A stretch of 64,000 nucleotides of DNA, from the NCBI GenBank assembly GCA_011772205.1, contig WVZY01000076.1, positions 114,567-178,566 on the forward strand, read 5' to 3'. Position numbers and translations under genes: made by a program. The notes under the pieces are model-generated. The model saw only the letters and a list, made by a program, of their open reading frames with translations, was not told the DNA's origin and did not search any database. Each line of letters begins with the position of its first letter. Positions within the stretch are counted from its first letter, which is position 1. This stretch comes from Candidatus Latescibacterota bacterium (GTDB lineage Bacteria; Krumholzibacteriota; Krumholzibacteriia; WVZY01). Below are positions 6,142 through 57,900 of this stretch, piece by piece.

Positions 6142-7623
6142 ATGCCTGAGAAGATATTGGGAATGGGTATTACGTTTGACGATGTGCTTCTGATTCCTGG
6201 CAAATCGTCCGTTCAGCCATCGGAAGTGAACGTCAGCACACGACTTACAAAGGACATTGCACTCAATATTCCAATTGTCTCCGCTGCAATGGATACTGTC
6301 ACAGAAGCGGAATTTGCCATCGCGCTCGCCCGGGAAGGTGGGATTGGGATCATCCACAGAAACATGAGCCCTGAGGCTCAGGCGGGGCAGGTGGATATGG
6401 TGAAGCGCAGCGAGAGCGGAGTCGTCAGCAATCCCATCACACTGGGACCGGACCAGCTTGTGAGAGACGCCAGGGCGGTGATGCGAAAATACAACATCTC
6501 AGGTGTTCCGATTACGGATATGGGGATACTCGTCGGTATGCTCACTACTCGGGACTTGCGCTTCGTCGAGGACGATTCGGTTCCCATTAGAGAATTGATG
6601 ACATCCGAAGGGCTCATAACCGCCGCGGAGGGAATCTCGATGGAGGAAGCAAAAAGAATCCTCCACGAGCACAGGATCGAAAAGCTGCCGGTCGTTGATT
6701 CGAAAAAGAGAATGAAAGGCCTCATTACGTTCAAAGACATAAAAAAGAGCACGGATTATCCGAACGCGTGCAAGGATGAGGAAGGCAGGCTTCGAGTAGG
6801 CGCTGCTGTGGGTGTTGGAAAAGACGCAGCACGGCGCGTGGATCTCCTCGTCGAGAGTCATGTAGATGTGATCGCGATCGACACGGCCCATGGGCATTCG
6901 GAAAATGTGATCGACACACTAACGAAAGTCAAGACACGGCACAGAAACCTTCAGGTAATTGCGGGAAACATTGCAACAGCAGCTGCGGCGAGAGATCTCA
7001 TCAAAGCGGGCGCGGACGGAATCAAGGTCGGCGTGGGGCCGGGAGCGATCTGCACGACGCGGGTGATTGCAGGCATCGGGGTTCCTCAGATCACCGCTAT
7101 CATGGAATGTGCCGCCGTTGCTGGAAAAGTTGGGGTGCCGCTCATCGCCGACGGAGGCGTGAAATACAGCGGGGACATCGTCAAGGCAATCGCTGCCGGT
7201 GGGGATACGGTAATGATTGGAAGCCTGTTCGCAGGCGCCGACGAGACGCCGGGAGAAATCGTCCTTTATGAGGGCCGGAGCTTCAAGATTTATCGTGGAA
7301 TGGGATCTGTGGAGGCGATGAGGCAGGGAAGCCGGGATCGTTACGCACAGGAGGATGTGGCGGAAGAGACCAAGCTTGTCGCAGAGGGAATCGAGGGACG
7401 AGTACCCTACAAAGGAAAGCTCTCGGAATCCGTGTTCCAGCTCGTCGGTGGATTGCGTGCCGGTATGGGATATTGCGGAGTCCGGACCATAGATGAGCTC
7501 AAAAGGAAAGGCAGCTTCATCCAGGTCACTGCGGCTGGGCTTAGAGAAAGCCATCCGCATGATGTCATTATCACCAAAGAAGCCCCTAACTATCGTCTCA
7601 GCCAGATCGACAATCGTCGCTAG
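6142..7623 (+). CDS. guaB: IMP dehydrogenase
   Basis: IMPDH N-terminus ([16 protein letters not shown]), a CBS pair, the catalytic loop [20 protein letters not shown], and GSLFAG. Confidence 0.95.
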
Positions 7624-8725: not shown

Positions 8726-9490
8726 TTAATCGTCGATCTTGAAATAGAACGACTCATCGATTAGCTGAATGGCTTTGACGAGTTTTTCGAGCTCGATTCT
8801 CAGCTCGGGATCTTTGGATTTCCGGTACGCCGAGTAAAGATCGAGGAAGCGATCGCGGAGTTCTTTGAGCTCTTCGCTTTCTTGGTACTTGTCGATTGAT
8901 CTTTCAAGGTGATAGATGTCTCCGTTTCCCAACCTCTCTAGTATGTTGAAGTATTCGCCCCGCATGTGGCTGAGGATCTCCACGTAGTTTTCGAATCCCC
9001 GGGATAGCTTTTCGAGAACCTCACTGATCGCCGTCGGTTTCCGGAACATCGACTGGCTGTAAGAATAGGCAAACTGATAATATGCTTTTCCTTTCCCCAT
9101 GTGGGCTTCTTCCGTGTGTTTGAACAGCGGTGAAGAAACGCCCCTGCCATCTGGATTTCGAAAGATGCCAATTGATATGAGAAGAAAATCTGCATTGGTC
9201 TTGTAAATAGTGTATTTCAGCCGAACATCCGACGAGTCCTTTATCTTTTCGAACAGGCTCTGGTCATAAGGGGAGAGGTATTTTTTCGCCCTGCGGTGAT
9301 ATTCGGGATTCATGAACGAGCACAACAAGTTTGCGAGATATACGTTTACGTCTTCATCGTAGAAATCATGATTTGAAGGATAGCCTGTCTCCATCCGGCT
9401 GTAGAGGAGACAGTTCATCATGAAGAAGAAATCGGGTTCGATCTCTCTTTTGCTGTTCGATCCAAAGTTGATGTGAGATTCGAGTTCCAC
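8726..9490 (-). CDS. hypothetical protein (AT-rich, compositionally atypical orphan)
   Basis: Long ORF (254 aa) with a clearly lower GC than its neighbours and codons rich in K, E, Y, F, N and I. I recognise no family. Confidence 0.5.
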   Translation of the reverse strand: MELESHINFGSNSKREIEPDFFFMMNCLLYSRMETGYPSNHDFYDEDVNVYLANLLCSFMNPEYHRRAKKYLSPYDQSLFEKIKDSSDVRLKYTIYKTNADFLLISIGIFRNPDGRGVSSPLFKHTEEAHMGKGKAYYQFAYSYSQSMFRKPTAISEVLEKLSRGFENYVEILSHMRGEYFNILERLGNGDIYHLERSIDKYQESEELKELRDRFLDLYSAYRKSKDPELRIELEKLVKAIQLIDESFYFKIDD

Positions 9491-11043: not shown

Positions 11044-13032
11044 GTGGATGCAAAGCGACCTCCAGCGCTGACTTCGCCTTGGAAAATCGGCTTTCTCGTT
11101 TCACTGCTACTTATTTTTCTAAGCGTCGGCGTGAACTACATGCTTTTTAGAATATTTCACCTATCGTGGAGCTGGATTGGATTAGAGGAAGGGAATTGGT
11201 TCTTCAACAAGGATCGATTTGTTCGTGAAATGTTCCCGCTCATGGCCCTCATTGCCCTCGCCTCACTCATCGCTTATTTTGCGATTACGTCGGCGGTTCG
11301 AAGGTACAAAGCTTATTTGGATTCCGGACATGATTATCGGAATCTCATAACAATGGTCAAAGGGATCAGAGATCTCGACGACGAGAATGTTATCAGAAAA
11401 TTAAGCAAGTATCCGGAGCTTCGTGATTTTCTTAGAAACGTGCGAGAGCAAGCCAAGGAAAGAGATCTAGCGCTTGCCGAACGTGAAGATGCTGTTGCCG
11501 AAAGAGAGCAGCAAAATGTTTCCTCTGATCTCATCAGAAGAGAAAGCGAATCGCTTGCGCGGGCGATTTTGGAGTTGTCGGATGGCGGATTAATCGGAGA
11601 CGTGAAAACTACCGTTCCGGATCTCATGCCAATTGAGAAAGCAATCCACGGGCTTGCAAACTCGGGTGGTGCCCAACCTGGAGCCGTTGACCTAGGAAAA
11701 CTTCATGGCGTGCGTAAGGACGTCGATGAAGCGATCAAGTATTTGAAAAGCCGCTTGGCCGAAAGCTCAAAAGAGCACAAAGCGAGCTGCAGCGTTGCTC
11801 AGGAGATCGAAAATCAGTTATCCCAGCTGAATGCAGTTCTGGCCAGCACGGGCGGGGTAACTCCCGCGGGAGCGGGCGGTACCGATTTCACTGGACTGGT
11901 CCAGTCGATGGATACGATAGAGCGGCTGTCCCTGGTTCTTGCAGATCTTGGCGAAGAAGCCAAGGGCATCGCAATCAATACGGCGCTGCAAGCCGGGTCG
12001 GGCGAGGGGGCGGTGGCAGATCTCATACAGTTGGCTGAAGATGTCCGCGGTGTCGCGTTGAAGTTTACGGACATGGCCCAATCCTATCAGGAAGCAATCG
12101 AACAAATGCGCAAGTCGATGGCGGGCGTGGAAGCTTCACGAGCAACGCCCGCTGGGGAATGCGAAGAGGGCCGGAATGTCGCACAGGTAGCTTCCGCGCT
12201 CAAAAGTAAAGTCTCACTGTGGGTCGAGCGCATGGTAGTCCTTTCGGATCAGATCAAGAACGTCGAGAAAAGCTTGGGACTAACGTTTGGGCCGCTCCAA
12301 GAAAAACTGGCCAACCTCAGAGAAGAGGGTGCGAAGCTGAGCGTGGAACCGACTGGCAAAGAAAGAGCGGCTAAGGGTCTCCAAGTGGAGACAGCTGGAG
12401 GCGGCTCGCCTGAGGAAGATCTGCAGGTAGAGACGAGCGCACCGCCGGGACTCGAACAAACAAAATCCGCTTCTACGGTGTTTTCCCAAATGGGAGCTCC
12501 CTCTCAAGACATACCAGGCCTCGAGAGCAATACGGGTCAGGTTTTCGACCAAGAGCCTAAAGAAGGGGAGATGTTCGCCGAACTCTCGAAGGCGGATTCA
12601 ATCGAGAAAGATGAAGACGTAACGTTCGAAGAAATCTCGTCGGAGAAGCTGGAAAAGCAGCGGGGAACGCCTTTGCGGCGTAAACGGCAGGACCCATCTG
12701 AGAGTGAACCGCCAGAAGAGACGATTGCAATAGAGCCTCCCAGCTCAGGATCCCCACTTGGAGGTCCTGCGGGCGAGGATACTGCGAGCGCTGATACATT
12801 CGAGGGAAAGATTGCTTTTGATCTGAGCAAAGCTACTGGATCCGAAGCCCAAGATTCTGAGGACTCGGAAGGCATGTACGACCACAACGCATTCTCATTT
12901 GAGGACATGAAAACAGCGGGGCGGCAGCAGATCCCAGCACAGAAGGCCGATTGGAAAGGTGCATTAGATGGTGCAACGGATGAAGAAGAAGTCATCGATC
13001 TTTACGAGCTCGGCGCTGTGGATTTCGTTTAG
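11044..13032 (+). CDS. membrane protein with a degenerate MCP-like signalling (hairpin-tip) segment and an acidic low-complexity tail
   Basis: GTG start with an AAAGGAGAT ribosome-binding site. Two N-terminal TMs with only a ~15-aa loop, so no sensor domain. Coiled-coil regions follow. The segment GIAINTALQAGSGEGAVADLIQLAEDVRGVALKF resembles the MCP consensus [31 protein letters not shown]. The C-terminal ~200 aa are D/E/S/P-rich. Confidence 0.55.
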   Translation: MDAKRPPALTSPWKIGFLVSLLLIFLSVGVNYMLFRIFHLSWSWIGLEEGNWFFNKDRFVREMFPLMALIALASLIAYFAITSAVRRYKAYLDSGHDYRNLITMVKGIRDLDDENVIRKLSKYPELRDFLRNVREQAKERDLALAEREDAVAEREQQNVSSDLIRRESESLARAILELSDGGLIGDVKTTVPDLMPIEKAIHGLANSGGAQPGAVDLGKLHGVRKDVDEAIKYLKSRLAESSKEHKASCSVAQEIENQLSQLNAVLASTGGVTPAGAGGTDFTGLVQSMDTIERLSLVLADLGEEAKGIAINTALQAGSGEGAVADLIQLAEDVRGVALKFTDMAQSYQEAIEQMRKSMAGVEASRATPAGECEEGRNVAQVASALKSKVSLWVERMVVLSDQIKNVEKSLGLTFGPLQEKLANLREEGAKLSVEPTGKERAAKGLQVETAGGGSPEEDLQVETSAPPGLEQTKSASTVFSQMGAPSQDIPGLESNTGQVFDQEPKEGEMFAELSKADSIEKDEDVTFEEISSEKLEKQRGTPLRRKRQDPSESEPPEETIAIEPPSSGSPLGGPAGEDTASADTFEGKIAFDLSKATGSEAQDSEDSEGMYDHNAFSFEDMKTAGRQQIPAQKADWKGALDGATDEEEVIDLYELGAVDFV

Positions 13033-13062: not shown

Positions 13063-15141
13063 ATGAAACCCGCCCTAGACAGCCTCGGATTGTTTATCGC
13101 GCAGGTTAAGCAGCATGCAGCAGCGCTCACCGAACTCTTGACGAAGGGCTCGAGTGTCGACCAGGCAAGCGACCTGATGGAAAGGTGTATCGTCTCGACC
13201 ACTATGCTTGCGGGCAGCACATCGGTCATGGGATTAGAAAGCTGGCAGGATTGCTTATCTGCTTGCGAAGCCCTGCTATCTCGCTACCGCAGTCTTTCGC
13301 TCCCGTGGGATGAGAAAATCGCCCAAGTGCTTTCCGAGTTGATCGAGAAAGAGGATCTGCTTGTGTCAGCCCACGCTGGCGGCGAGATTGGTGACCTGTC
13401 CTCCATCGTGTCCGCAGAAGAGATTCAGGCGTTGCTGGAGGAGGCCAACGTATTGCTCGATACCGAACCGGTTACTGTAGCTCCCGAGGCGGATTCGAAG
13501 CCGGAAGGGGGATCGGCGGGGGGCGGGCGGAAATCCACGGGAACCGGGATTGCAGCGGAAATGAGTGGGGAGGCAGGCGCAGCGGAGAAAGCTGCAGGAA
13601 TTGATGCGAGTCAGAGGGCATTCCTAGCTGGAACGACAGCGTCTCTCAAGAAAGCCGCCAATTCTCTGTTCGATGGATTGTCGGTCATTCAGGGCGACAG
13701 GGGCGAAATATTGGATGGCTCGCTCATGGACATTCGCAAGCAGCTTTGTCTCCTTAGTTTTTTTGCACGCTCAATGGGTGGGATATTGAGGCAAGACTCA
13801 GGCGAAAATCTCCACACGGTCACATCATCGCTCGAGCCTGCAAAAGTGGCGCTTAAAGATTACGCGGGCGGTCTCTGCAGGAGCGGGGAGAGACATGTTG
13901 ATATTGCTTTCGGGGGCACTCAAAATGAAGTGGATGCAGGTCTACTTTTCCATATCGAGCGAGTGCTTCAGTGGATGATTCACGATGTATACGTTCGATG
14001 CGAAGAACCTCATCTCAAAATCGATGTCGAGGTCAGTGAGAAAAACGGGGCGCTGTGGTGGAAAGTGAGAGATAACGGGGAGAACTTCATAACAAACTCG
14101 AGAGTAGACCATGATGAGTTACTGGCATTCTATCCCTCCCTCAAGGAGGTTCGCAAAACACTCCAACATCTAGAAGGCGTCTTATGGGTTGAGCCCGATG
14201 AAAACCACGACACCCGTTTTGCATTCTCGACGCCTCTGTCCAAGGAGCAGATTAGATTCTTGGTCTGGGGTAAAGGGGAGAAAAGCTTCGCAGTTCTTTC
14301 AACACAATTCTGCACGACTTTGCAGGTAGAGTCTACTTCGGTCGAGTGTGATTCGAGAGGAGAACATTTGGTAATAGACGACCGCAGAGTTCCGTTAGTG
14401 AGATTGGAACTCGTCTACCCCGAGGCGCCTGGAGAAGGGAATGAGATCGCAGTCATAGGGGCTGTTGAAAAGAGAGTTGCATTTTACGTGGAGGGTGAAG
14501 GGCGACACGAGGAAGGTCTCTGGTTGAAGGACGCCATACCGTTGTGGAAAGGGCTTCCCAGTGGGGTGGCTCAAGTGGGACGCCGGAGAATCCCGCTCAT
14601 TGAAGCAAAGGATCTGTTGGAGAGATATCTATATGCCTCGGAAGAAGCTGTTGAAGCGGAAGTTTCTGGAGGAGTGGTACAAGAAGACAAGGATCTTTCC
14701 CAAGCTCAGGCAACGCTGGAGAAAGGTTCTCCATCTCCTCCAGAACTAAATACAGAGGGAAAAGAGGTCGATGTGCTCGTGGTGGAGAGAAGTGATGCCG
14801 TGAAGGAGGCGTTCGAGTCTGTATTAGCAAGAGGGAATTACAGAGCGAAAGTCGTGGGTAAGCTTGATGAGGCGATGGAGATCATAGAAAACAGCACTCC
14901 GCGTCTCATCATTAGCGAGTTCCGAATGCCTTCGATGGCGGCGAAGAAACTAACACAGGCCTTAAGGAAGGAAGGCAAAAACATCCCCGTGCTGGTGACG
15001 ACATCTCACTCAGGGGCCAATGCCGAGCTCCTCGTAGAGAAACTGGGTGTTTCAGGCTACCTCAGCAAGCCCCTCGATGACGACGCCGTTTATGCGAAGG
15101 TCACTGACATTCTGCGAGAGGAAAACGGTTCCGGCGAATGA
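13063..15141 (+). CDS. CheA-like protein with degenerate HPt, HATPase and receiver-like domains (putative pseudo-histidine kinase)
   Basis: ATG preceded by GGAGGAG. HPt-like N-terminus where the phospho-His position reads RCIVSTTMLAGSTSV instead of RAAHSIKGGAG. Kinase-core-like stretch HIERVLQWMIHDVYV…KVRDNGENFI…GVLWVEPDENHDTRFAFSTPL, against the CheA N, G1 and G2 boxes ending …GTxFxIxLPLT. A CheW-like region follows. The C-terminal receiver-like domain has E where the phospho-Asp should be (LIISEFRMP). Confidence 0.55.
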   Translation: MKPALDSLGLFIAQVKQHAAALTELLTKGSSVDQASDLMERCIVSTTMLAGSTSVMGLESWQDCLSACEALLSRYRSLSLPWDEKIAQVLSELIEKEDLLVSAHAGGEIGDLSSIVSAEEIQALLEEANVLLDTEPVTVAPEADSKPEGGSAGGGRKSTGTGIAAEMSGEAGAAEKAAGIDASQRAFLAGTTASLKKAANSLFDGLSVIQGDRGEILDGSLMDIRKQLCLLSFFARSMGGILRQDSGENLHTVTSSLEPAKVALKDYAGGLCRSGERHVDIAFGGTQNEVDAGLLFHIERVLQWMIHDVYVRCEEPHLKIDVEVSEKNGALWWKVRDNGENFITNSRVDHDELLAFYPSLKEVRKTLQHLEGVLWVEPDENHDTRFAFSTPLSKEQIRFLVWGKGEKSFAVLSTQFCTTLQVESTSVECDSRGEHLVIDDRRVPLVRLELVYPEAPGEGNEIAVIGAVEKRVAFYVEGEGRHEEGLWLKDAIPLWKGLPSGVAQVGRRRIPLIEAKDLLERYLYASEEAVEAEVSGGVVQEDKDLSQAQATLEKGSPSPPELNTEGKEVDVLVVERSDAVKEAFESVLARGNYRAKVVGKLDEAMEIIENSTPRLIISEFRMPSMAAKKLTQALRKEGKNIPVLVTTSHSGANAELLVEKLGVSGYLSKPLDDDAVYAKVTDILREENGSGE

Positions 15142-15336
15142 CCCGGATCCAAGATTGGCTGGTTGCGGGGCCTAATAAGCTAAGACGTTTAATCATAAGC
15201 GCTTCCATTGGGTGAATATCCATTGGCATTGAGGCCGCTTTTCCAATAGTGGCGGTGGTTTTGGTACAGATCGTGCAACCGCTTGAAATGGGTGAGATAC
15301 TCAGAATACGATCGGCAAGCAAAAGGATGGAAAGTT

Positions 15337-15558
15337 ATGAGCAAGTGGAGAGAATCTGATTATTCCAGCATTATCATCGGCGGCGAGGATGCGGATGTCG
15401 TGATGACTTCGGTGGAAGCAGCAGAGTATCTCAAGATGCATGTCAAAACGGTTTGTAGGCTTGCAAAAGAGAAGAAAATTCCTGCGAAGAAGGTGGGCAG
15501 TGAGTGGAGGTTCCTCAAGAGCGTTTTGGATAAATGGCTTGCCCAGGAGGTGGTCTAG
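15337..15558 (+). CDS. excisionase-family helix-turn-helix DNA-binding protein
   Basis: About 74 aa from the internal Met, with an AAGGATGG ribosome-binding site. The TSVEAAEYLKMHVKTVCRLAKEKKIP segment is typical of HTH_17/Xis-type domains. Confidence 0.55.
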   Translation: MSKWRESDYSSIIIGGEDADVVMTSVEAAEYLKMHVKTVCRLAKEKKIPAKKVGSEWRFLKSVLDKWLAQEVV

Positions 15559-15632: not shown

Positions 15633-17465
15633 GTGCCAATGGCCAAAACGGTCATAGAGAAAGTCCCTTCAAAAAGCTCCGGTGTAACAGTATTTAAAAT
15701 CACCGGCACTCTCGGTTTCCACGAAAAAGAGAACCTTATCAAGCTGTTTGATGAGTGCGAGAAGCACGGGATTAGCAAGCTCGTAATGGATTTTTCCGAG
15801 TTGACATCACTTGGAGGAGGGTGCGCCAAAATCATTCGCGAAAAGGCCGATTCGGGGGATTTCTTCATCGGTGTGGCAGGTGCATCGAAGACGACTCTGA
15901 AATTCCTACGTAATGAAGATGAGCCAGGGCGTGTTCGCTTCGCATCGACTGTAGAGGAAGCGATGGAAGAGATCGGAAGCGGATCTGGCGAGGAAGTCGT
16001 TGTGGAGCACCCCGCGAAAAAATCCGCTTCAACCTCCGCGGCTAAGAAACAGAAAGCCAAGAAGCTCCAAGCGAAGGAAAAAGAACCCAAGGTGTCGGCT
16101 CGTGTGGAAGCTGATCACGCGAAAGAGGATGAGATTGAAAAGCATGAAACCGATGGAGCCAGATCCGAGGCACAAAATCGCACCGCACCTGATACCGGCG
16201 ACAATGGACTACCGAACGTGATCTGTCTCGGCCACGACGCCAACGGCGTCGTGAGCGAAGAAAGCACGGGAGAGCCCGTCGACGAGTGGTACGCTGATGC
16301 GCCTGTGCCGGGTCTGGAGGGGGCGCCGATCGAGGAGAAATCGGCGGATCTCGAAAAATCATCGGATAGGAAGCTCAAGAGAAGGTTGGTGCAATATAGC
16401 TCGCTTCTCTCGATCAGCTCGGATTTCAACCGAATCATGGAGAAATCGAAGCTTCTGGACACGATTCTTCTTACCACGATCGCCCAGGTTGGCGTGGAAT
16501 CTGCAGCCTTCTTCGAATACCGGGAGGATGGGCTCGAGCCGATCGCGGCGAAGGGGATCGAACTCGAACAGTGCACCCCGCTGGTTCTCGAAGGGACAGG
16601 GGATGGACGCATCTGGGAAGGTGATGAAATCTTGGAGATGTCTGATTCTCCGATCGAGGAAGAGTCCAAAAAGAAAGCCCTGTCATCGGGATTTGCTTGG
16701 GCGGCTCCTGTGATCATTTATAACGAATTCAGAGGGCTTGTTCTGATCGGCAAGCCAATCAAAAAAACATTAAACGAGGATTCGCTCGAAGTTCTGAACA
16801 TAATTGTCCGGCAAGCCGCAGTTGCTTATGAAAACACCCGCCGTTTCGAGGAAGAAAGTGAGCGAATCCTTGGTCTGGTCCAGAGTCTTATCTCGCTCAT
16901 CGAGGAGAGAACCCTTGCGAGGGGCAACACGTCGCTCATCGCAGGTCACTCGTATATGCTCGCAAAAAAGATGCACTACCCGGACGAGCTCATCAAGGAT
17001 CTGATGTTCGGCGTGGTACTTCGAGACATTGGGATGATCAAGGTGAGCGACCTCATTGTAAGGAGTCCCAGGGAGCTCGGTAAGGAGGAGTGGGAGATTA
17101 TCAAGAGGCACCCAATCGACGGTGCCGACATGCTTAGGAAGATGAAGTTCTCGGACCACGCCGTCAAGATTGTCCTGTGCCATCATGAGCGGTATAACGG
17201 CGAGGGTTATCCGAATCAATTAAGGGGCGGTGAGATTCCTCTCGGCGCCAGAATCGTCTCGGTCGTAGAGAGTTATGGGGCGATGTTGCAGGACCGTCCG
17301 ACAAGACCTGCGCTGACGCGCGAAGAGGCTTTGAACACTTTGAAGGAAAATTGGGGGATGCGATACGACCCTGAGGTCGTCGAACAATTCGTCGAGATCA
17401 TCGAAGAAGAAATACGCACGGGAGAAAACAAACAATACATGAGCAGCGAATTTTTCAGCGTCTAG
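15633..17465 (+). CDS. STAS–GAF–HD-GYP domain protein with a substituted HD motif
   Basis: N-terminal STAS/anti-sigma-antagonist-like domain, a long acidic linker, a GAF domain, and a C-terminal HD-GYP (HHERYNGEGYP). The usual LHDIGK reads LRDIGM, and the upstream His motif is not obvious. Confidence 0.7.
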   Translation: MPMAKTVIEKVPSKSSGVTVFKITGTLGFHEKENLIKLFDECEKHGISKLVMDFSELTSLGGGCAKIIREKADSGDFFIGVAGASKTTLKFLRNEDEPGRVRFASTVEEAMEEIGSGSGEEVVVEHPAKKSASTSAAKKQKAKKLQAKEKEPKVSARVEADHAKEDEIEKHETDGARSEAQNRTAPDTGDNGLPNVICLGHDANGVVSEESTGEPVDEWYADAPVPGLEGAPIEEKSADLEKSSDRKLKRRLVQYSSLLSISSDFNRIMEKSKLLDTILLTTIAQVGVESAAFFEYREDGLEPIAAKGIELEQCTPLVLEGTGDGRIWEGDEILEMSDSPIEEESKKKALSSGFAWAAPVIIYNEFRGLVLIGKPIKKTLNEDSLEVLNIIVRQAAVAYENTRRFEEESERILGLVQSLISLIEERTLARGNTSLIAGHSYMLAKKMHYPDELIKDLMFGVVLRDIGMIKVSDLIVRSPRELGKEEWEIIKRHPIDGADMLRKMKFSDHAVKIVLCHHERYNGEGYPNQLRGGEIPLGARIVSVVESYGAMLQDRPTRPALTREEALNTLKENWGMRYDPEVVEQFVEIIEEEIRTGENKQYMSSEFFSV

Positions 17466-17477
17466 AGGTGAATAGTC

Positions 17478-19043
17478 ATGCAAGAAGATATCCTCGTCGT
17501 CGATGACGATCCGGATGTTCTGGACATTCTAAGCGAAACGCTCAATAAGCGGGGTTATAACGTTGTGGTTGCCCTGGATGCGCAGTCTGCGCTCCGGTCT
17601 TTCAAGCGGAAGCAACCCAGCCTCGTGATCCTGGATATCATGCTGCCGGATATGGACGGCTTGGAGGTCTTCAAGCGGATGCGCGCAGACCAAGCGGATC
17701 GCTACATTCCGATCCTCTTCCTCTCGTCTAACGGCGATCTGGAGACAAAGCTAAGCGGATTCGATATGGGGGCGGAAGATTACCTGGTAAAGCCGGTTTC
17801 GCTGAAGGAATTGAATGCTAAGATCGGGAAGATTCTAAAACGCACGTCCCAGGCCCAGGCGCTCTGGGAAGAGCGCGAAGCGTTGGAAACGGAAGTAACG
17901 AAGGAGCATGAGAATTACATTCATATCAATAAGCAGCTAAAGAAGCAGGTCCTCGCTATGAAGACGCTTTTTTCCATATCGCAGGACCTGACCCGCATCC
18001 TCGAACTGGATGAATTGATCAATGCCTTTGCACTCACGATTGTTGGAGAGCTGAGAATCTCGAGTATGGCGTTTTTCGCCCTGGTGAGCGAGAACAGCAA
18101 GATCCTCAGCCTACGGGGAGTCAAAGGTTTCCGAAAGGAGAAATTCGCAGGTCTTGAAATACCCAGAGACTGTGCCTTCGTTGAATGGCTGGGAACCCGG
18201 GCCAAGCCCAAAAAGATAGTGAGGAGCAACGACCGCACGTGGGTCAAGCGACTTCCAGACATCCGGTTGGCTGCTTTCGAGTACGCAACGCCAATCATGA
18301 TCAAGGACAAGATGAGAGGAATCGTTTTCACAGGGCCAAAGCTGAGCAGGGATGATTACACACCATATGACCTCGATATGCTGCAGTTCATTTGCAACTC
18401 CGCTGGAGTCGGTATGGAGAATGCACGATTGTTTAAAGAGCTTCAGACAACGTATCTATCAACGGTAAAAACGCTTGTTTCCATTATCGAAGCGAAGGAT
18501 AGCTATACGAGGGGCCATACGGAACGGGTTGCGGAGTACGCCATAGCGATCGCAGAAAGAATGAATCTTCCCCAAGAGGAGCAAAGGCGGATCGCATTCG
18601 GTGCGGTCCTTCATGATATCGGTAAACTCGGGGTCCTGGAAAAAGTCCTCAATAAAAAGGAGCAGTTGGATACTGAGGAATGGAAGATATTGAAAGCCCA
18701 CCCCGAAGTCGGAGCCAGCATCATCGAGAATATGGAGTTCCTTACGGGAACGGTAGAACTGGTGCGGCATCACCATGAAAACTGGAATGGGAAAGGTTAC
18801 CCGGATGGGTTGAAAGGAGAGGAGATCCCAATTGGATCGAGAATCATTGCAGTCGCAGATGGCTTCGATGCAATGACAACAGATCGTCCCTACCGTAAAG
18901 CGCTAAAATGGACCGAAGCCCTCTCGACAATCAAGGAAGGCTCCGGCATCCAATACGATCCCGAAGTTGTGCGGAGCTTCGAGGAGATTATCAGAGACAA
19001 GAACTTCAGAAAACGAATGAGAGAAAAGCATTCCAATCCATAA
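17478..19043 (+). CDS. response regulator with GAF and canonical HD-GYP phosphodiesterase domains (RpfG-like)
   Basis: REC domain (VVDDDPD…LVILDIMLPDMDG…K). HD-GYP motifs are intact: YTRGHTERV, LHDIGK, HHHENWNGKGYP and AVADGFDAMTTDRPYR. GAGGTGA ribosome-binding site. Confidence 0.85.
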   Translation: MQEDILVVDDDPDVLDILSETLNKRGYNVVVALDAQSALRSFKRKQPSLVILDIMLPDMDGLEVFKRMRADQADRYIPILFLSSNGDLETKLSGFDMGAEDYLVKPVSLKELNAKIGKILKRTSQAQALWEEREALETEVTKEHENYIHINKQLKKQVLAMKTLFSISQDLTRILELDELINAFALTIVGELRISSMAFFALVSENSKILSLRGVKGFRKEKFAGLEIPRDCAFVEWLGTRAKPKKIVRSNDRTWVKRLPDIRLAAFEYATPIMIKDKMRGIVFTGPKLSRDDYTPYDLDMLQFICNSAGVGMENARLFKELQTTYLSTVKTLVSIIEAKDSYTRGHTERVAEYAIAIAERMNLPQEEQRRIAFGAVLHDIGKLGVLEKVLNKKEQLDTEEWKILKAHPEVGASIIENMEFLTGTVELVRHHHENWNGKGYPDGLKGEEIPIGSRIIAVADGFDAMTTDRPYRKALKWTEALSTIKEGSGIQYDPEVVRSFEEIIRDKNFRKRMREKHSNP

Positions 19044-22662: not shown

Positions 22663-23451
22663 TCACGTAGCGGAGGCAGGGCTCGGGACGGTTTCTTCCG
22701 TTCCCAAGCCGAAGTTCTTGAGCAAGTCGTTCCTGAGGGTTTTCGTATCGATCTTCCGCTTTAGCTTTCCTCCCTGTGCATATGCGATGGTTCGTGTTTC
22801 TTCCGAGACCACGATGATGATTGCATCGGTCTCTTCGGATAAACCGAGGGCGGCGCGGTGACGTGTGCCGAGGGTTGCGGATAGCCGCTGGTCTTGTGTC
22901 AAGGGGAGAATACATCCCGCTGCGACAACCCGATCGTTCTGTATGATCACGGCGCCGTCGTGCAGGGGGCTTGGGGGGGTGAAAATCGTTTCTAGAAGCT
23001 CCGCGCCCACTTTAGCGTCGATTTTGGTGCCGGTTTCCACGTAGTTTTTCAAACCCATATCCTTTTCCAAAACGATGAGCGCGCCAAGCCCTTTCTCGGT
23101 CAGGTGGGTGCACGCTTTGATGATTTCGGGGATGATCCCGGTCTCTTCCACTCTAAAGTATCGGCGAAGAAAGCTGTGCTGCCCGATGGAAGCGAGGGCC
23201 CGGCGCAATTCGGGCTGAAAAATGATGACGAAAGCGATGACCCAAACCGTCTTGAGGCTCGAAATGATCCAGTTCAGCGCGATGAGGTTGATCCATTGGG
23301 CAGCTACGGAGAGGACGAAGAGGATAATGAGCCCGATGAACATGTGCACCGCTCGGGTTCCCTTCATCAGAATGAAAAGCCTGTAGAGCAGATAGGACAC
23401 GACCAGGATGTCGAGTATGTCGATTATTAGATCTGTAGAAATGAAGCCCAT
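22663..23451 (-). CDS. cdaA: diadenylate cyclase (c-di-AMP synthase)
   Basis: Three N-terminal TMs plus a DAC domain (DGAVII…, LGTRHRAALG, and the RTIAYA-type motifs). Confidence 0.88.
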   Translation of the reverse strand: MGFISTDLIIDILDILVVSYLLYRLFILMKGTRAVHMFIGLIILFVLSVAAQWINLIALNWIISSLKTVWVIAFVIIFQPELRRALASIGQHSFLRRYFRVEETGIIPEIIKACTHLTEKGLGALIVLEKDMGLKNYVETGTKIDAKVGAELLETIFTPPSPLHDGAVIIQNDRVVAAGCILPLTQDQRLSATLGTRHRAALGLSEETDAIIIVVSEETRTIAYAQGGKLKRKIDTKTLRNDLLKNFGLGTEETVPSPASAT

Positions 23452-23478
23452 CGAAATCCCATCGTAAGGGTGAGGATT

Positions 23479-24372
23479 CTAGCTGTCTATAGAGTATGCA
23501 CTCCCATCGGCCATCGCGTCCAGCACCTTCAGCAGCTCGACCGTTTCCTTTACATCATGCACCCTGATGATCTCAACGCTTTCGGACCAGCAACGAGCAG
23601 CTACTGCGAGACTTCCGGAAAGCCTATGATCAGCGTCCGCATCGAGGAGTTTTCCTAGAAAGCTCTTACGAGACCCTCCAACGAGAACGGGATACCCGAG
23701 GGACCTGATTTTTCCGATGTTGTCGAGTAGTGCGAGATTGTCACAAAGGCGCTTGCCAAATCCAATTCCCGGATCGACAACGATGGAATCCCCAGCGATG
23801 CCTTTTCCCCTTAGTTGGTGGGCACGTTCAGATAGAAAGTCTGTGACTTCGCGGACAACATTGGAGTAAGTCGGATCGTCCTGCATTGTCTTTGGATCGC
23901 CTTTCATGTGCATGATGACTACCGGCGCCTTGTACCTCAGGAGCACTTCGACCATCCTCGGATCGCGGCAAGCACAAACGGCGTTGATCATATGGCAGCC
24001 GAGCCTGAGGGCTTCCTCCGCGATGAAGGGTTTCTGCGTGTCCACTGAGATAGGAATCTGAATCTTCCCAATAATGGCTTCAAGAACCGGCCCGATCCTG
24101 TCGAGCTCGGTCTCCTCCGAGACAGGATCGGACCCGGGGCGGGTGGATTCACCGCCGATATCGAGGATATCAGCCCCATCTTCCGCGAGCTCGAATGCCC
24201 TCTCGATTGCTCTTTCGCTATCGATGTATCGTCCGCCATCGGAAAAAGAGTCGGGGGTCACGTTGAGGATCCCCATAACGAGAGGAGTCCGAACGAACGA
24301 GAGGCTCACATCACGACAGCGCAATGAACGGATTCTTTCGTGGTTAGAGAATTGTTTCATGCCGGGAATCAT
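23479..24372 (-). CDS. folP: dihydropteroate synthase
   Basis: Pterin-binding domain ([31 protein letters not shown]). Its stop overlaps ftsH by 4 nt. Confidence 0.9.
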
Positions 24373-26426
24373 TCGGCCAGGCTGGTGTCGGGCTCGGCAA
24401 ATGGAGGCGGTTTTTTCGGGAGCGCGTCCTTGTCTGCCTCGGTTGCAGCATCTTTTGGTTTCTCACCCGGATGCTCTTTATCGGCGGATTTTATCTTCAA
24501 TGGAGGCAGCTCACCGCCTTTTAGAAGGATATCGATCTCCTCCCTGTCCAATGTCTCTCTTTCGAGGAGCGCGTCGGCAACGGCGTGCAGCTGGTCCATA
24601 TTTTCCTCGAGGATCTTTTTGGCCCGGTCGTAACATTCTGTGATGATTCTGCTGACCTCTTCGTCGATCGCTTGGGCCGTTGTTTCACTGTAGTCCTGGT
24701 GTTGAGCAATCTCCCGACCCAAGAAGATCTGCTCCTCTCTCTCACCAAAGGAGATCGGTCCGAGATTTGAGCTCATACCCCAGCGCATAACCATTTTTCG
24801 AACGAGCTTCGTGGCCATTTCGATATCCTGCTGAGCGCCGCTTCCCATGCGATTCAAGATGAGCTGCTCAGCCACCCTGCCGCCGAGGGACTGGGTAATA
24901 GTGTCGAGGCACCAATCTTTTGACACCTCTGTCCGGTCATCCTCCGGGAGGAAAAACGTGACCCCTCCCGCCCGACCGCGTGGGATTATGGTCACCTTAT
25001 GAATCGGGTCGGAGTATTTTAGCTGCGCGCCCACCACGGCATGACCGGCCTCGTGGTATGCGGTGAGGCGTTTGACATCTTCTTTGATAATACGACTCTT
25101 TTTCTCCGGTCCGAGCAGAATCTTATCCTTGGCTTCTTCGAATTCCTCCATCGACACCTTGTTCTTGTCGTACCGTGCTGCCAGAAGGGCCGCTTCGTTT
25201 ACCATATTGGCCAGATCGGCACCGCTCATCCCTGGAGTTCCTCTGGCAAGCACATGCAGGTCAACATCTTCAGCAAGCGGGATTTTTCTCGTGTGCACTT
25301 TGAAAATCCCCTCGCGCCCGTGGACGTCAGGCATGTCAACGATGATTCTCCTGTCGAAACGACCGGGTCTCAGGAGTGCCGGGTCGAGAACGTCAGGGCG
25401 GTTTGTCGCCGCAAGCAGGATCACGCCTTCATTACTCTCAAACCCATCCATCTCGACGAGGAGCTGGTTCAATGTCTGTTCCCGCTCGTCGTGCCCTCCA
25501 CCGAGTCCGGCACCGCGATGGCGTCCCACAGCGTCGAGCTCATCGATGAAAAGGATGCAGGGCGCATGTTTTTTCCCTTGATCGAAAAGATCCCTTACAC
25601 GGGAGGCGCCGACACCGACGAACATTTCGACGAAATCCGAGCCGCTCATCGAGAAGAACGGAACATTTGCCTCGCCGGCTACGGCTCTGGCGAGAAGCGT
25701 CTTTCCGGTGCCGGGCGGACCCAGAAGCAGAGCTCCCTTGGGAATTCGGCCGCCGAGTTTTTGAAACTTCTTGGGGTCTTTGAGGAACTCAATGATTTCC
25801 TGAAGCTCTTCTTTCGCCTCGTCAGTCCCGGCCACGTCCTCAAACGTTATGCGCGGGCGGTCGCCACCGAACATTCTCGCGCGGCTCTTCCCAAAACTGA
25901 AAGCGCGGTTCCCGCCCGCCTGCATTTGTCGCATGATCAGGAGCCACAATCCCACGATCAACAGGAGGGGAAGGCCCGAAGTGAGGAGTTTCACCCAAAG
26001 GCTTCCGCCAGGGATCTCGCCCTCGATGATGGCATTCTCGTTTTTCTCGAGAATCCTTTGAGGGATGTCCTTGTCCTCTGCCGGAAGAATGAGAGAGAAA
26101 TTCTCTACCCGCAGTTCCCGCTGCTTTCCTTCGGATGCATCGGGAGGGCCAACGGGAATGATGGTCGGGGCGAGCAGCGTTCCGTGAACTTCCAAACCCT
26201 TAATGACGATTTTCTTGATATTGCCCGTTTCAACCTGCCTGATGAACTCGGAATAGGAGATCCGGTACTCCGGCGTTTTTCCCATCTCGAACATCTGGAA
26301 AGCGATGAGCAAGATCAGGACGAGAATTACCCAGAAGACCATTGCCTTGAATGGCTTGCCGGGCTTTGCCAGGCCGGGTTTCTTGGGAGCGCCGGGTTTC
26401 CTGGGTCCTTCTTCGTACTCAGGCAT
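24369..26426 (-). CDS. ftsH: ATP-dependent zinc metalloprotease FtsH
   Basis: AAA Walker A (GPPGTGKT), the SRF region, and an HEAGH zinc site. Start trimmed to the ATG (MPEYEEG) preceded by AAAGAGAGAGG; the longest ORF begins with TTG. Confidence 0.93.
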
Positions 26427-26452
26427 GTGGGATCCGCCTCTCTCTTTCAAGG

Positions 26453-54946: not shown

Positions 54947-57900
54947 CTATTGCATTCTGTCGTAATCTCTTAAACGCACATACAGCGTTGGCTTGGTGAT
55001 ACCGAGAAGCTCGGCTGCCTTGGTCTTTCCTCCCACAAAATCGACCATTTTTTTGGCGAGAATGGGCTCGACTTGCTGAAGCAACGGGTTGGCTTTGGAG
55101 TAGGTGCTTCGCTCGATGATCTGCTGGATGAGCGCCTCGAGGCTTTTGTGCGGCTGGCCTCCCGATTCGGATACCTTTTCCAGGAAGTCCTCAGGCAGTG
55201 AACCGGGATGAATCACGTCGTCATCGGATAGCAACACGATTTGTTCGATTAAGTGCTGGAGCTCCCGCACGTTTCCTTCCCATGGGGCTTTCTGGAGAAT
55301 CCTTATTGCGTCCGGAGCAATTGTCTTTCGGAGTACTCCGCTTTCAGAGCATCGTTTTTCCAAATAATCCAGCGCGATGGCAACGATGTCTTCTTTTCTA
55401 TCGCGCAGAGGTGGTATCCGGATTTGAAGGACGTTCAACCGGTAATATAAATCCTTTCTGAACTTTCCCTGCTCGCAGAGTTCTTCCAGGTCTTCATTGC
55501 TGGCCGCGATGATGCGAACATTCGAATGGATCTTTTTCGTTCCACCGACGCGATTGAAGCTCTTGCTTTCGAGGAAGTTCAGTAGCTTTGTCTGTATCGT
55601 CATCGGAATGACATTGACATCGTCGAGAAAAACCGTCCCCCCGTCCGCTTTCTCGCACAAACCGAGTTTGCGCGCCACTGCGCCGGTGAAGGCACCTTTT
55701 TCGTGTCCGAAGAGCTCACTTTCGAGAAGGCTTTCGGGGATCTGAGCACAGTGGATGTCCTGGAACACCTTGTGGGATCTGGGGCTGTTGTAATGAATTG
55801 CCCGCGCAAGCTCCGTTTTGCCCGTGCCGCTTTCGCCGATGATGAGGATACCGGTGTCTATGTCCTTGACTTTTTCGATGGTCCGGAAAATTTTTCTCAT
55901 CGATTCACTCTTGCCGATGAGGTTCTCGAAGCGGTACTGATCTTCGACCTGCGCTTTGAGGGCCACGACTTCCTCCACCAAGCGTTCCTCTTTGTGAACG
56001 TGCTCTTCGAGATGGAACATCAGCGTCAAGATCCCGGAAATATGTCGACCAAGGGCTGTGAAAAAGTTCAAGTTGTCTTTTGAAACGGGGAGCGAATCCT
56101 GAGGCATATAGAAGAGGAGGCACCCCAAATCTTCCCTTATTGCTTTGAGCGGGATACACACAAATCCTCCCCCTCCCACATCAATCTGGGGTGCGAGATC
56201 CAACGCGTCTGGTGAGCTGCTTTCCAAAACGCGACCCAGAAGGAGCGTTCTGTTCATTAGTTCCGTCAGGCCCTCATCCTGAAGAGATTTCTCCCTGCCT
56301 CCCGCGTCGATAACAGCGAATCGACCGTCTTCTCTCTTGAGAATGAGGCGGCATTCGTCGGGACCAATGATATTCCGGGTGAGGTCCAGAATTCGTCTGA
56401 AGCACTCATTCCTGTCGAAGGGGGGTTCGAAGAGCAGGCTGAGCTCGTAAAAGGCTTTGAGGAGATTCTGGGTTTGGCTCCCTGCGATGTAGGTCCGCGC
56501 AGGATGCGCCCTGATCTCCTCACGAAGAGTGATGATCTCCTCCGGAACCTCATGACCGAAGTCTGAGTGGATCTGGCGCTCTGCCCTGTCCAGGTATTGC
56601 ATCGCGTCGAATGTGTTGGCGCCGCGAGCGTGAAGGAGCCCAATCTTCGCGAGCGCCGCTGCAGCGAGACGGTTGTTCGATAATGTTGTAAAGGCGCTCG
56701 CAGCTTTTTCATAGTATTCCAGCGCCTCCATCAGCTTGTTCTGCTCTGTTTCCAGGTCTCCCAATATCATGTTGATTTGCGCGCTCTCGTATTTTGAGCC
56801 GATCAGCGTGGCGAGCTCCGATGCTTTTTCAACGTGCTCTCGTGATTTGGCATACATTTTCTGCGTGAGGTAGAGGGTGGAAAGCCGCCTGTGAGAGCCA
56901 AGCTCTACGTTTGTCGATCCGAGTTCGCGCGATATTCGTAGGGAGTCCAGAAAGTATTTTTCGGCTTCCAGATATTGATCCCGGACGGTGGCAATAGCTC
57001 CCAGCGTGTTGTAAATCTCTGCTGTGAGCATGGCTATGCCCAGCTTGGAGCTGATTGCCATGCTGTCCATGCACCGTTTTTCCGCTTCCTCATAATCGTG
57101 CATTTCATAAGAGAGAAGGGCGAGATTTAGGTAAGCGGCGGCTATTCCCACCCGATTGTTTTGCCGCTGTTTGATCTCGAGGCTCTTTTTATAATATTCG
57201 AGAGCTTTATCGTATTCACCTTTGGTTTGATAGGCGAGGGCAAGGTTGTTGTAGCTGCCCGAGAGCGCATTGATGTCGCCGGCGTTCTCTCGGAGCATGG
57301 CGCTCCTGTTGTAGTATCGGATTGCCTCGTCATAACGGCTCGTGTTGAATTGGACCACTCCTGTCAGGTTGAGTGCCTGGGCAACGATGAGCGGGTATTG
57401 ACTCGGATTGAGAGTTGTGAGACTGAGCTTGCAGCACTCGAGGGAATTTTCATAGTTGCCAAGGCGGTAATGGAACCAGCCGATATCATTTAGAAGCTGC
57501 GCCTGCTCTGGCAGCGGGAGCGCTGACTGAAGCTCTTCCCTGACGGCACTGAGAAGGTCGAGGGATCTCTTGTATTCTCCTCTGGACTCCCAGGTATCGG
57601 CCAGCAAACGGCATATGCTGCTTGCGATCTCTGCGTTCTCGCGCCTACCCTCGATTCCCACCTCATCGAGGTTTTGCTTGGCAGTGAGCAGCAAGTTTTC
57701 GGCCTCCCCTGACCGTCCCTTGTCGATCAGATCGATGCTCGCCTCGCGGAGAATAAAGAGCTTGTCGGCTATGGCAAGCGCCTTGTGAAGTCCTCGGTGA
57801 ATGAGTTTCATGCAGTGCTCGAGAATGAGCGCATCCCTGTTGTCACGCCTCGTCTCTCTCAGATAGGACACGCAGTGCTCCGCGGCAAGATGTGTTTCCT

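Follow-up and report, generated by a model that had tools for sequence, protein, structure and literature searches.

A conserved CheA-derived protein with degenerate catalytic sites and a fused pseudo-receiver in a Latescibacterota gene cluster

A CheA-shaped protein fused to a receiver

The DNA examined here is a 64,000-nucleotide (nt) stretch from a Candidatus Latescibacterota bacterium (GenBank assembly GCA_011772205.1, contig WVZY01000076.1, positions 114,567 to 178,566 of the forward strand), hereafter called the window, whose own coordinates are used throughout. On its plus strand, at 13063..15141, lies a gene for a CheA-like protein with a C-terminal receiver (REC) domain, which an earlier note, made from the sequence alone, had described as a pseudo-histidine kinase with its fold retained and its catalytic elements lost. 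The list of open reading frames (ORFs) gives the gene as 13051/13063-15141. A spacing of 5 nt separates a GGAGGA Shine-Dalgarno sequence from the ATG at 13063, where the homologs begin as well; on these grounds we took ATG 13063 as the true start and rejected TTG 13051, in agreement with the product length of 692 amino acids (aa) assigned previously. All the peptide strings quoted in the earlier note were found in this ORF. An identical protein is present in a metagenome-assembled genome of Candidatus Latescibacteria, where it is annotated simply as a response regulator.

Searches of Pfam, NCBIfam and the PDB with the single sequence returned the C-terminal receiver and otherwise only a faint HATPase_c match (Pfam E 0.21 at aa 319-393, 12.5 bits against a cut-off of 26.4), while the Pfam CheW model gave no match in the window protein; profiles of the family cut by region were required. 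We collected 19 full-length homologs of 36-53% identity, divided their alignment by region, with aa 1-140 as the N-terminal part and aa 186-560 as the core, and followed structure prediction by AlphaFold2 (AF2), from alignments of 16-19 sequences, with a fold search. The AF2 models were confident. Direct Pfam support is weak in the family as well, HATPase_c being matched in 6 and CheW in 3 of the 19 members.

The N-terminal part (aa 1-135, 13063..13467) is a P1-like domain of five helices with the helical-bundle fold of the histidine phosphotransfer (Hpt) domain. It is followed by a low-complexity linker (aa 136-188, 13468..13626), weakly conserved and interrupted by gaps when the family is aligned, whose roughly 55 residues fall outside both structural models; no P2 domain was detected in it, nor did this stretch have any Pfam match. 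The predicted structure then places a P3-like helical hairpin, a putative dimerisation domain, at aa 189-246 (13627..13800), with two long antiparallel helices that align at the level of fold within CheA P3P4P5 and P3P4. Next come a P4-like domain with the HATPase_c (Bergerat) fold in degenerate form (aa 258-391, 13834..14235) and a CheW-like P5 domain (aa 397-525, 14251..14637). The C-terminal pseudo-receiver (aa 569-685, 14767..15117) has the CheY-like fold, identified by Pfam Response_reg (PF00072, E 2.6e-15, 57 bits against a cut-off of 30.2, aa 571-680) and by matches to many PDB receivers, including alignments to those of NtrC and LuxO, and its active-site positions were read from a column table. 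All of these segments are on the plus strand.

The architecture is P1-P3-P4-P5-REC, that of a CheA-REC hybrid lacking P2; P1, P3, P4 and P5 are the core domains of CheA kinases (PMC10782961). The predicted structures with their fold matches, the profile searches and the motif tables of the family agree on this point, as had been proposed from the sequence; the middle region, which might have turned out to be an unrelated fold, matches CheA P3P4P5. Neither the missing P2 nor the added receiver is unusual in itself: P2 is absent from more than half of all CheAs, and a C-terminal receiver is present in about 35% (PMC10782961).

Catalytic positions across the family

An exhaustive search of 1.84 billion representatives with the core profile gave 371 matches, 93 of them at E<=1e-10. 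The relatives fall into three tiers: tier 1 (about 33 representatives of about 690 aa) resembles the window protein, tier 2 (about 15, of about 540 aa) has no receiver, and tier 3 (about 14, of about 700 aa) has a receiver that is degenerate in another way. Canonical CheAs, variable in length, appear from E 6.7e-11. The best of them is P0203, and this and the other nearest canonical relatives (P0205, P0210 and P0213) share the architecture Hpt-HATPase_c-CheW-REC. We aligned 71 sequences with MAFFT (61 degenerate, 10 canonical) and tabulated the motif columns. About 60 sequence-cluster representatives, at 30-55% identity and extending through the three tiers down to about 30%, share the losses described below; the degenerate state is conserved, not decaying.

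In P1, the column of the phosphorylated histidine, His48 in E. coli, holds His in 10/10 canonical sequences and T47 (nt 13201-13203) in the window protein. Tier 1 has R13, K6, T3, S3, N2, G1 and H1 at this position, tier 2 has Lys or Arg, and tier 3 has Arg. The Lys column of the HxxKG motif is Lys in the canonical proteins and Ala or Glu in the degenerate tiers (A50 in the window). An independent hhalign comparison of P1 with canonical Hpt domains (probability 91%, E 1e-6) likewise set T47 opposite the His, so that both methods bear out the claim that the phospho-His is missing. The concern that a conserved His or Asp had been mis-aligned found no support, as no invariant or near-invariant His occurs anywhere in the 19-sequence family alignment. 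A phospho-Thr function for T47, of the Tpt kind seen in ChpA, was considered and rejected because the column is mostly Arg or Lys. One tier-1 representative, P0132, is alone in having His at the phospho-site (VTSAHMLAGS); its N-box, G1 box and lid are as degenerate as those of the others.

The nucleotide-binding site of P4 is affected more unevenly. The N-box Asn, present in 10/10 canonical sequences, is Asp in 60/61 degenerate ones, including D308 (nt 13984) of the window protein, as the earlier reading of a missing Asn requires. The G1 box reads DNGEN (D337-N-G339-E-N341) in place of DxGxG. Its first Asp is kept in all sequences (10/10 canonical, 61/61 degenerate; D337) and its first Gly nearly so (10/10 canonical, 29/32 in tier 1; G339), whereas the last Gly, found in 10/10 canonical proteins, is Asn in 26/32 tier-1 sequences (N341). 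The G1 motif, previously described as lost, is thus lost only in part. The ATP lid, F-box and G2 box of canonical CheAs are hit by two deletions, of 17 and 18 alignment columns, in all 61 degenerate sequences; with them go the lid and the G2 box (GRGVG), and what is left is a conserved LAFYPGL, of which the window protein has the remnant LAFYPSL (aa 354-360). LAFYPGL and a second motif, LWVEP, are near-invariant in the family. With hhalign, canonical P4 again aligned (probability 97%, E 1e-11), placing D308 against the Asn and G2 within a gap of 16 residues. Because there is no acceptor His, N-box Asn, ATP lid or G2 box, autophosphorylation should be impossible, and we infer from the sequence that the protein does not autophosphorylate.

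The receiver has lost its acidic residues and kept its switch residues. At the column of CheY D57, the phospho-Asp, the window protein has E619 (nt 14917) and tier 1 has E 27 and D 3, which upholds the report of Glu at this site while three relatives retain Asp. The columns of CheY D12 and D13 hold E575 (tier 1, E 28 and D 1) and R576 (tier 1, Arg, Gln, Lys or Glu), respectively; those of T87 and K109 hold T647 (T 29, S 1) and K669 (Lys in 30/30). Since a Glu occupies the acceptor site and an Arg one position of the metal-binding pair, phosphorylation of the pseudo-receiver is very unlikely. The substitutions D13K/R in CheY and D54E in NtrC activate these proteins without phosphorylation, and Glu stands at the Asp site of plant pseudo-response regulators (APRR/TOC1); by this analogy, R576 together with E619 might mimic a permanently "on" receiver and lock the domain in an active-like state. 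Since tier 2 has no receiver and tier 3 has one altered otherwise, the receiver degenerated or was lost differently among lineages. The tier-2 ortholog at locus L031 (8001-9626) has no receiver domain whatever, and the tier-3 ortholog at locus L029 (8001-10184) retains Asp at the phospho-site, with Asn-Gln where the acidic pair should be and Asp or Glu in place of the Lys.

The statement that every catalytic element is gone therefore stands for the His, the N-box Asn, the lid, G2 and the receiver Asp, and does not stand for the G1 Asp and Gly or for the receiver Thr and Lys. As the features that define catalysis in CheA and in receivers are absent, we file the protein as CheA-derived rather than as a CheA kinase.

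The conserved gene cluster

The pseudo-CheA gene is the second of five consecutive plus-strand genes whose ORFs are all intact. Upstream, 11044..13032 encodes a membrane protein with two transmembrane (TM) helices that resembles methyl-accepting chemotaxis proteins (MCPs); its stop lies 30 nt before the pseudo-CheA start. Directly downstream in all loci is a small DNA-binding protein of the helix-turn-helix family HTH_17 (Pfam E 1e-13), listed as ORF 15283-15558, for which homolog lengths of 73-77 aa suggest a start at ATG 15337 (15337..15558) rather than at TTG 15283. It is followed by a STAS-GAF-HD-GYP protein with a degenerate site (15633..17465) and by a canonical REC-GAF-HD-GYP protein (17478..19043), both assigned by Pfam and motif counts and the latter by NCBIfam as well. 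Promoter and terminator scans gave results at chance level and were uninformative on operon boundaries.

We compared neighbourhoods in 25 GTDB genomes, the named ones all Latescibacterota or Krumholzibacteriia, and in metagenome contigs. In every locus with enough sequence, the gene order is a 254-aa protein on the minus strand, a CN-hydrolase, the MCP-like protein, pseudo-CheA, HTH_17, STAS-HD-GYP and REC-HD-GYP, and the portion from the MCP-like protein to REC-HD-GYP is kept in all of the approximately 28 loci with enough sequence, those of tiers 2 and 3 included. Tier-2 and tier-3 genes thus occupy the same cluster and are distant orthologs, which makes the degeneration old. The MCP-like and pseudo-CheA genes are separated by 4-30 nt or overlap, the spacing often being only about 4 nt. 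The 254-aa protein (8726-9490, minus strand) has no Pfam or NCBIfam match; its gene is divergently oriented and lies just upstream of the CN-hydrolase and MCP-like genes in all related loci.

The product of 11044-13032 is read, from its sequence, as a strongly diverged MCP-like protein. Its two N-terminal TM helices are joined by a loop of only about 28 aa, and the remainder comprises a long helical region and a long acidic, disordered tail. Pfam MCPsignal reaches only E 0.12 on the window protein, and a precomputed match exists in 1/80 homologs. A profile of 35 sequences compared with the PDB matched chemoreceptor signalling domains, 2ch7 at E 2.8e-6 as well as those of PcaY, TM14, Aer and Tsr. 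In the block LGEEAKGIAINTALQAGSGEG..DLIQLAEDVR the alignment runs ungapped through the tip of the MCP hairpin (aa 302-341, nt 11947-12066), although the tip sequence itself is strongly diverged. Two motifs mark the family: AVRKYKxYLDSGxDY beside the membrane, which is invariant, and VIDLYxLGAVD[YF] at the C-terminus (aa 650-662), which is conserved. Some MCPs carry a C-terminal pentapeptide, and by analogy the latter motif resembles a docking peptide on a tether. The upstream partner in tier 2 is clearly MCP-like (hhalign E 2e-47).

The two HD-GYP proteins differ in their active sites. In the STAS-GAF-HD-GYP protein the catalytic HD is RD in 23/23 orthologs and the first metal-binding His is mostly Tyr, while HHE..G.GYP is kept; judged from these motifs, it probably acts as a pseudo-phosphodiesterase or as a receptor for a nucleotide. 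The REC-GAF-HD-GYP protein has a receiver with the full DD/D/K set and complete H..HD..HHE..GYP motifs, and is predicted to be the sole active signalling enzyme of the cluster.

A possible scaffold and its alternatives

Several characterised systems share part of this design. CheA-REC hybrids of the CheAY, FrzE and WspE type have the same domain order (Hpt, no P2, P3-P4-P5-REC), the same P1 and P3P4P5 folds and an adjoining MCP-like gene; the window protein departs from them in its missing phospho-His, N-box Asn, lid and G2, its broken G1, a receiver with neither Asp nor acidic pair, HATPase_c and CheW scores under the Pfam gathering thresholds, and the absence of CheW, CheR and CheB genes from the 64-kb window. 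In the Wsp system (WspA, an MCP; WspE, a CheA-REC; WspR, a REC-GGDEF), too, a CheA-REC hybrid is coupled genomically to a receiver-bearing enzyme of cyclic di-GMP (c-di-GMP) metabolism rather than to flagella, and no flagellar genes were found in the window. Wsp, however, uses phosphotransfer and GGDEF synthesis, whereas the present cluster has an apparently dead CheA and putative HD-GYP phosphodiesterases and is devoid of CheW, CheR and CheB. Cereibacter (Rhodobacter) sphaeroides CheA3 combines a non-functional HATPase_c domain with a functional P1 His and has CheA4 as its partner (PMC10782961); the dead P4 is common to both, but the CheA3 His is trans-phosphorylated by CheA4 from the same operon and CheA3 has no receiver, whereas here P1 has no His and no gene for a partner kinase is found in the cluster. 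Pseudomonas aeruginosa ChpA contains Hpt-fold domains without His that are not phosphorylated in vitro and have no known function (PMC10782961), but these stand beside six functional Hpts and an active kinase core, whereas the window protein has a His-less domain as its sole Hpt-like one. DivL of Caulobacter is a repurposed pseudo-histidine kinase (PMC4211667), though of class I, with dimerisation and catalytic (DHp-CA) domains, PAS domains, a largely intact CA and no MCP pairing. Pseudo-receivers, both plant APRR/TOC1 and bacterial atypical response regulators, likewise have the phospho-Asp replaced, by Glu in plants, but here such a domain is fused to a pseudo-CheA and keeps its switch Thr and Lys. 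Each single loss therefore has a precedent; the combination in one CheA, and this family itself, are undescribed in the limited literature that we searched.

We favour the reading, at a probability of roughly 0.6, that the window protein is a CheA-derived pseudokinase fused to a pseudo-receiver and serves as a non-catalytic scaffold that links HD-GYP output to a protein resembling a receptor. The observed folds, lost motifs, conservation across the family and fixed gene neighbourhood support the scaffold or pseudokinase interpretation put forward earlier, the loss of activity being deduced from sequence. In such a scaffold, the CheW-like P5 would dock onto the hairpin tip of the putatively co-transcribed MCP-like protein, as CheA P5 and CheW do, and the resulting complex would relay a conformational rather than a phosphoryl signal. 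This signal might leave by protein-protein contacts that surfaces of the P1-like domain and the pseudo-receiver make with candidate recipients encoded by the next three genes (the HTH protein, the degenerate STAS-GAF-HD-GYP protein and the active REC-GAF-HD-GYP protein), and would set the activity or localisation of a cyclic-dinucleotide phosphodiesterase. A broader and much more tentative proposal, which we consider possible but doubtful, is that this is an ancient, phosphorylation-free, chemosensory-type machine of Latescibacterota, Krumholzibacteriia and related uncultured lineages, in which a complex of the receptor-like protein with a pseudokinase shaped like CheA, its pseudo-receiver locked on and its pocket perhaps binding a nucleotide ligand, exerts allosteric control over the HTH protein and over two HD-GYP proteins, of which one is dead and the other active.

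A number of observations weigh against the scaffold. The retained G1 Asp and first Gly, with Asp in place of the Mg-binding Asn, make some nucleotide binding in the remnant pocket possible. The structural models come from shallow alignments, and the upstream partner in tier 3 aligns in its TM and juxtamembrane part only. No histidine kinase was identified in the cluster or the window for the REC-HD-GYP protein, which needs one, and separate CheW, CheR, CheB and CheY genes are all absent from the window, so that a canonical array is not demonstrated. The flanks at 6142-7623 and 22663-26450, which encode IMPDH, an M16 peptidase, the cyclic di-AMP synthase CdaA, FolP and FtsH, are syntenic in most related genomes; with everything from IMPDH to CdaA, FolP and FtsH in conserved order, the linkage within the cluster could in part reflect general conservation of gene order rather than function.

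The remnant pocket lends itself to other readings. In one, which is unlikely although arguable, the degenerate P4 is a sensor of a small molecule or nucleotide, such as c-di-GMP or another cyclic nucleotide of its HD-GYP neighbours, and the protein is a second-messenger receptor rather than a passive scaffold. The remnants of the pocket are the best-conserved part of the protein (invariant R312, D337, D349, A355, Y357 and P358, together with D308 and G339), linkage to two HD-GYP genes is strict, and there is a precedent in the CA domain of the histidine kinase CckA, which binds c-di-GMP (reviewed in PMC12189002). But no cyclic-dinucleotide binding motif was identified in pseudo-CheA, conservation of the pocket could equally mark a protein-protein interface, and the substrate of the HD-GYP proteins is itself putative. 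That the protein is still an enzyme, binding ATP-Mg through the G1 Asp and N-box Asp and phosphorylating a non-His target, for example a Ser or Thr in the STAS domain of the downstream protein, is decidedly improbable. The invariant G1 Asp, the first Gly kept in 29/32 tier-1 sequences and an Asp308 that could in principle ligate Mg2+ speak for it, as does the presence of a STAS-domain protein encoded two genes downstream, given that GHKL kinases such as SpoIIAB and RsbW act on STAS partners; the pairing of the GHKL-fold P4 with the STAS domain is only an idea. The deletion, in 61/61 sequences, of about 35 residues comprising the whole ATP lid and the glycine loop of G2 that holds the phosphates argues strongly in the other direction, as do HATPase_c scores far under the Pfam threshold and a usual STAS phospho-Ser position that, judged by eye, seems unconserved.

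Two further explanations do not involve the pocket. The protein could be one half of a split kinase like CheA3, or a phosphatase or phosphate sink that depends on an unlinked kinase, its P1-like domain docking onto the receiver of the REC-HD-GYP protein and promoting dephosphorylation or sequestering it. The P1 has no His to accept phosphate, in contrast to that of CheA3; a CheA4-like gene is found neither in the cluster nor in the window nor in the approximately 28 loci; and phosphatase activity is not something that can be inferred from sequence. We consider this quite unlikely. Loss of all catalytic motifs could also naively suggest a decaying pseudogene or an annotation artefact, but this can hardly be reconciled with an intact ORF behind a strong ribosome-binding site, confident AF2 models, and about 60 representatives at 30-55% identity that share numerous invariant residues and a fixed gene order in at least two phyla; we rejected it on the strength of this conservation.

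Chemosensory pathways are defined by the enzyme CheA. If the scaffold reading is true, the framework of such a pathway can be kept on in a role that involves no phosphorylation, much as DivL illustrates among classical histidine kinases. On the broader, more tentative proposal, this would be the first chemosensory core with every phosphotransfer step replaced by protein-protein signalling. The module as a whole is conserved, multi-phylum and apparently phosphorylation-free, with three degenerate components (the MCP-like protein, pseudo-CheA-REC and the RD variant of HD-GYP). Its pairing of a divergent receptor with HD-GYP proteins makes it a testable module for cyclic-dinucleotide regulation in uncultured FCB-group bacteria, and it offers a natural experiment on which surfaces of CheA matter apart from catalysis. 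A published survey identified CheAs by Pfam matches to HATPase_c and CheW (PMC10782961); with the window protein under the Pfam thresholds, a census of this type would probably miss such proteins.

The remainder of the window consists of housekeeping genes. It also includes a very long ORF of 1577 aa on the minus strand, at 54947-59680.

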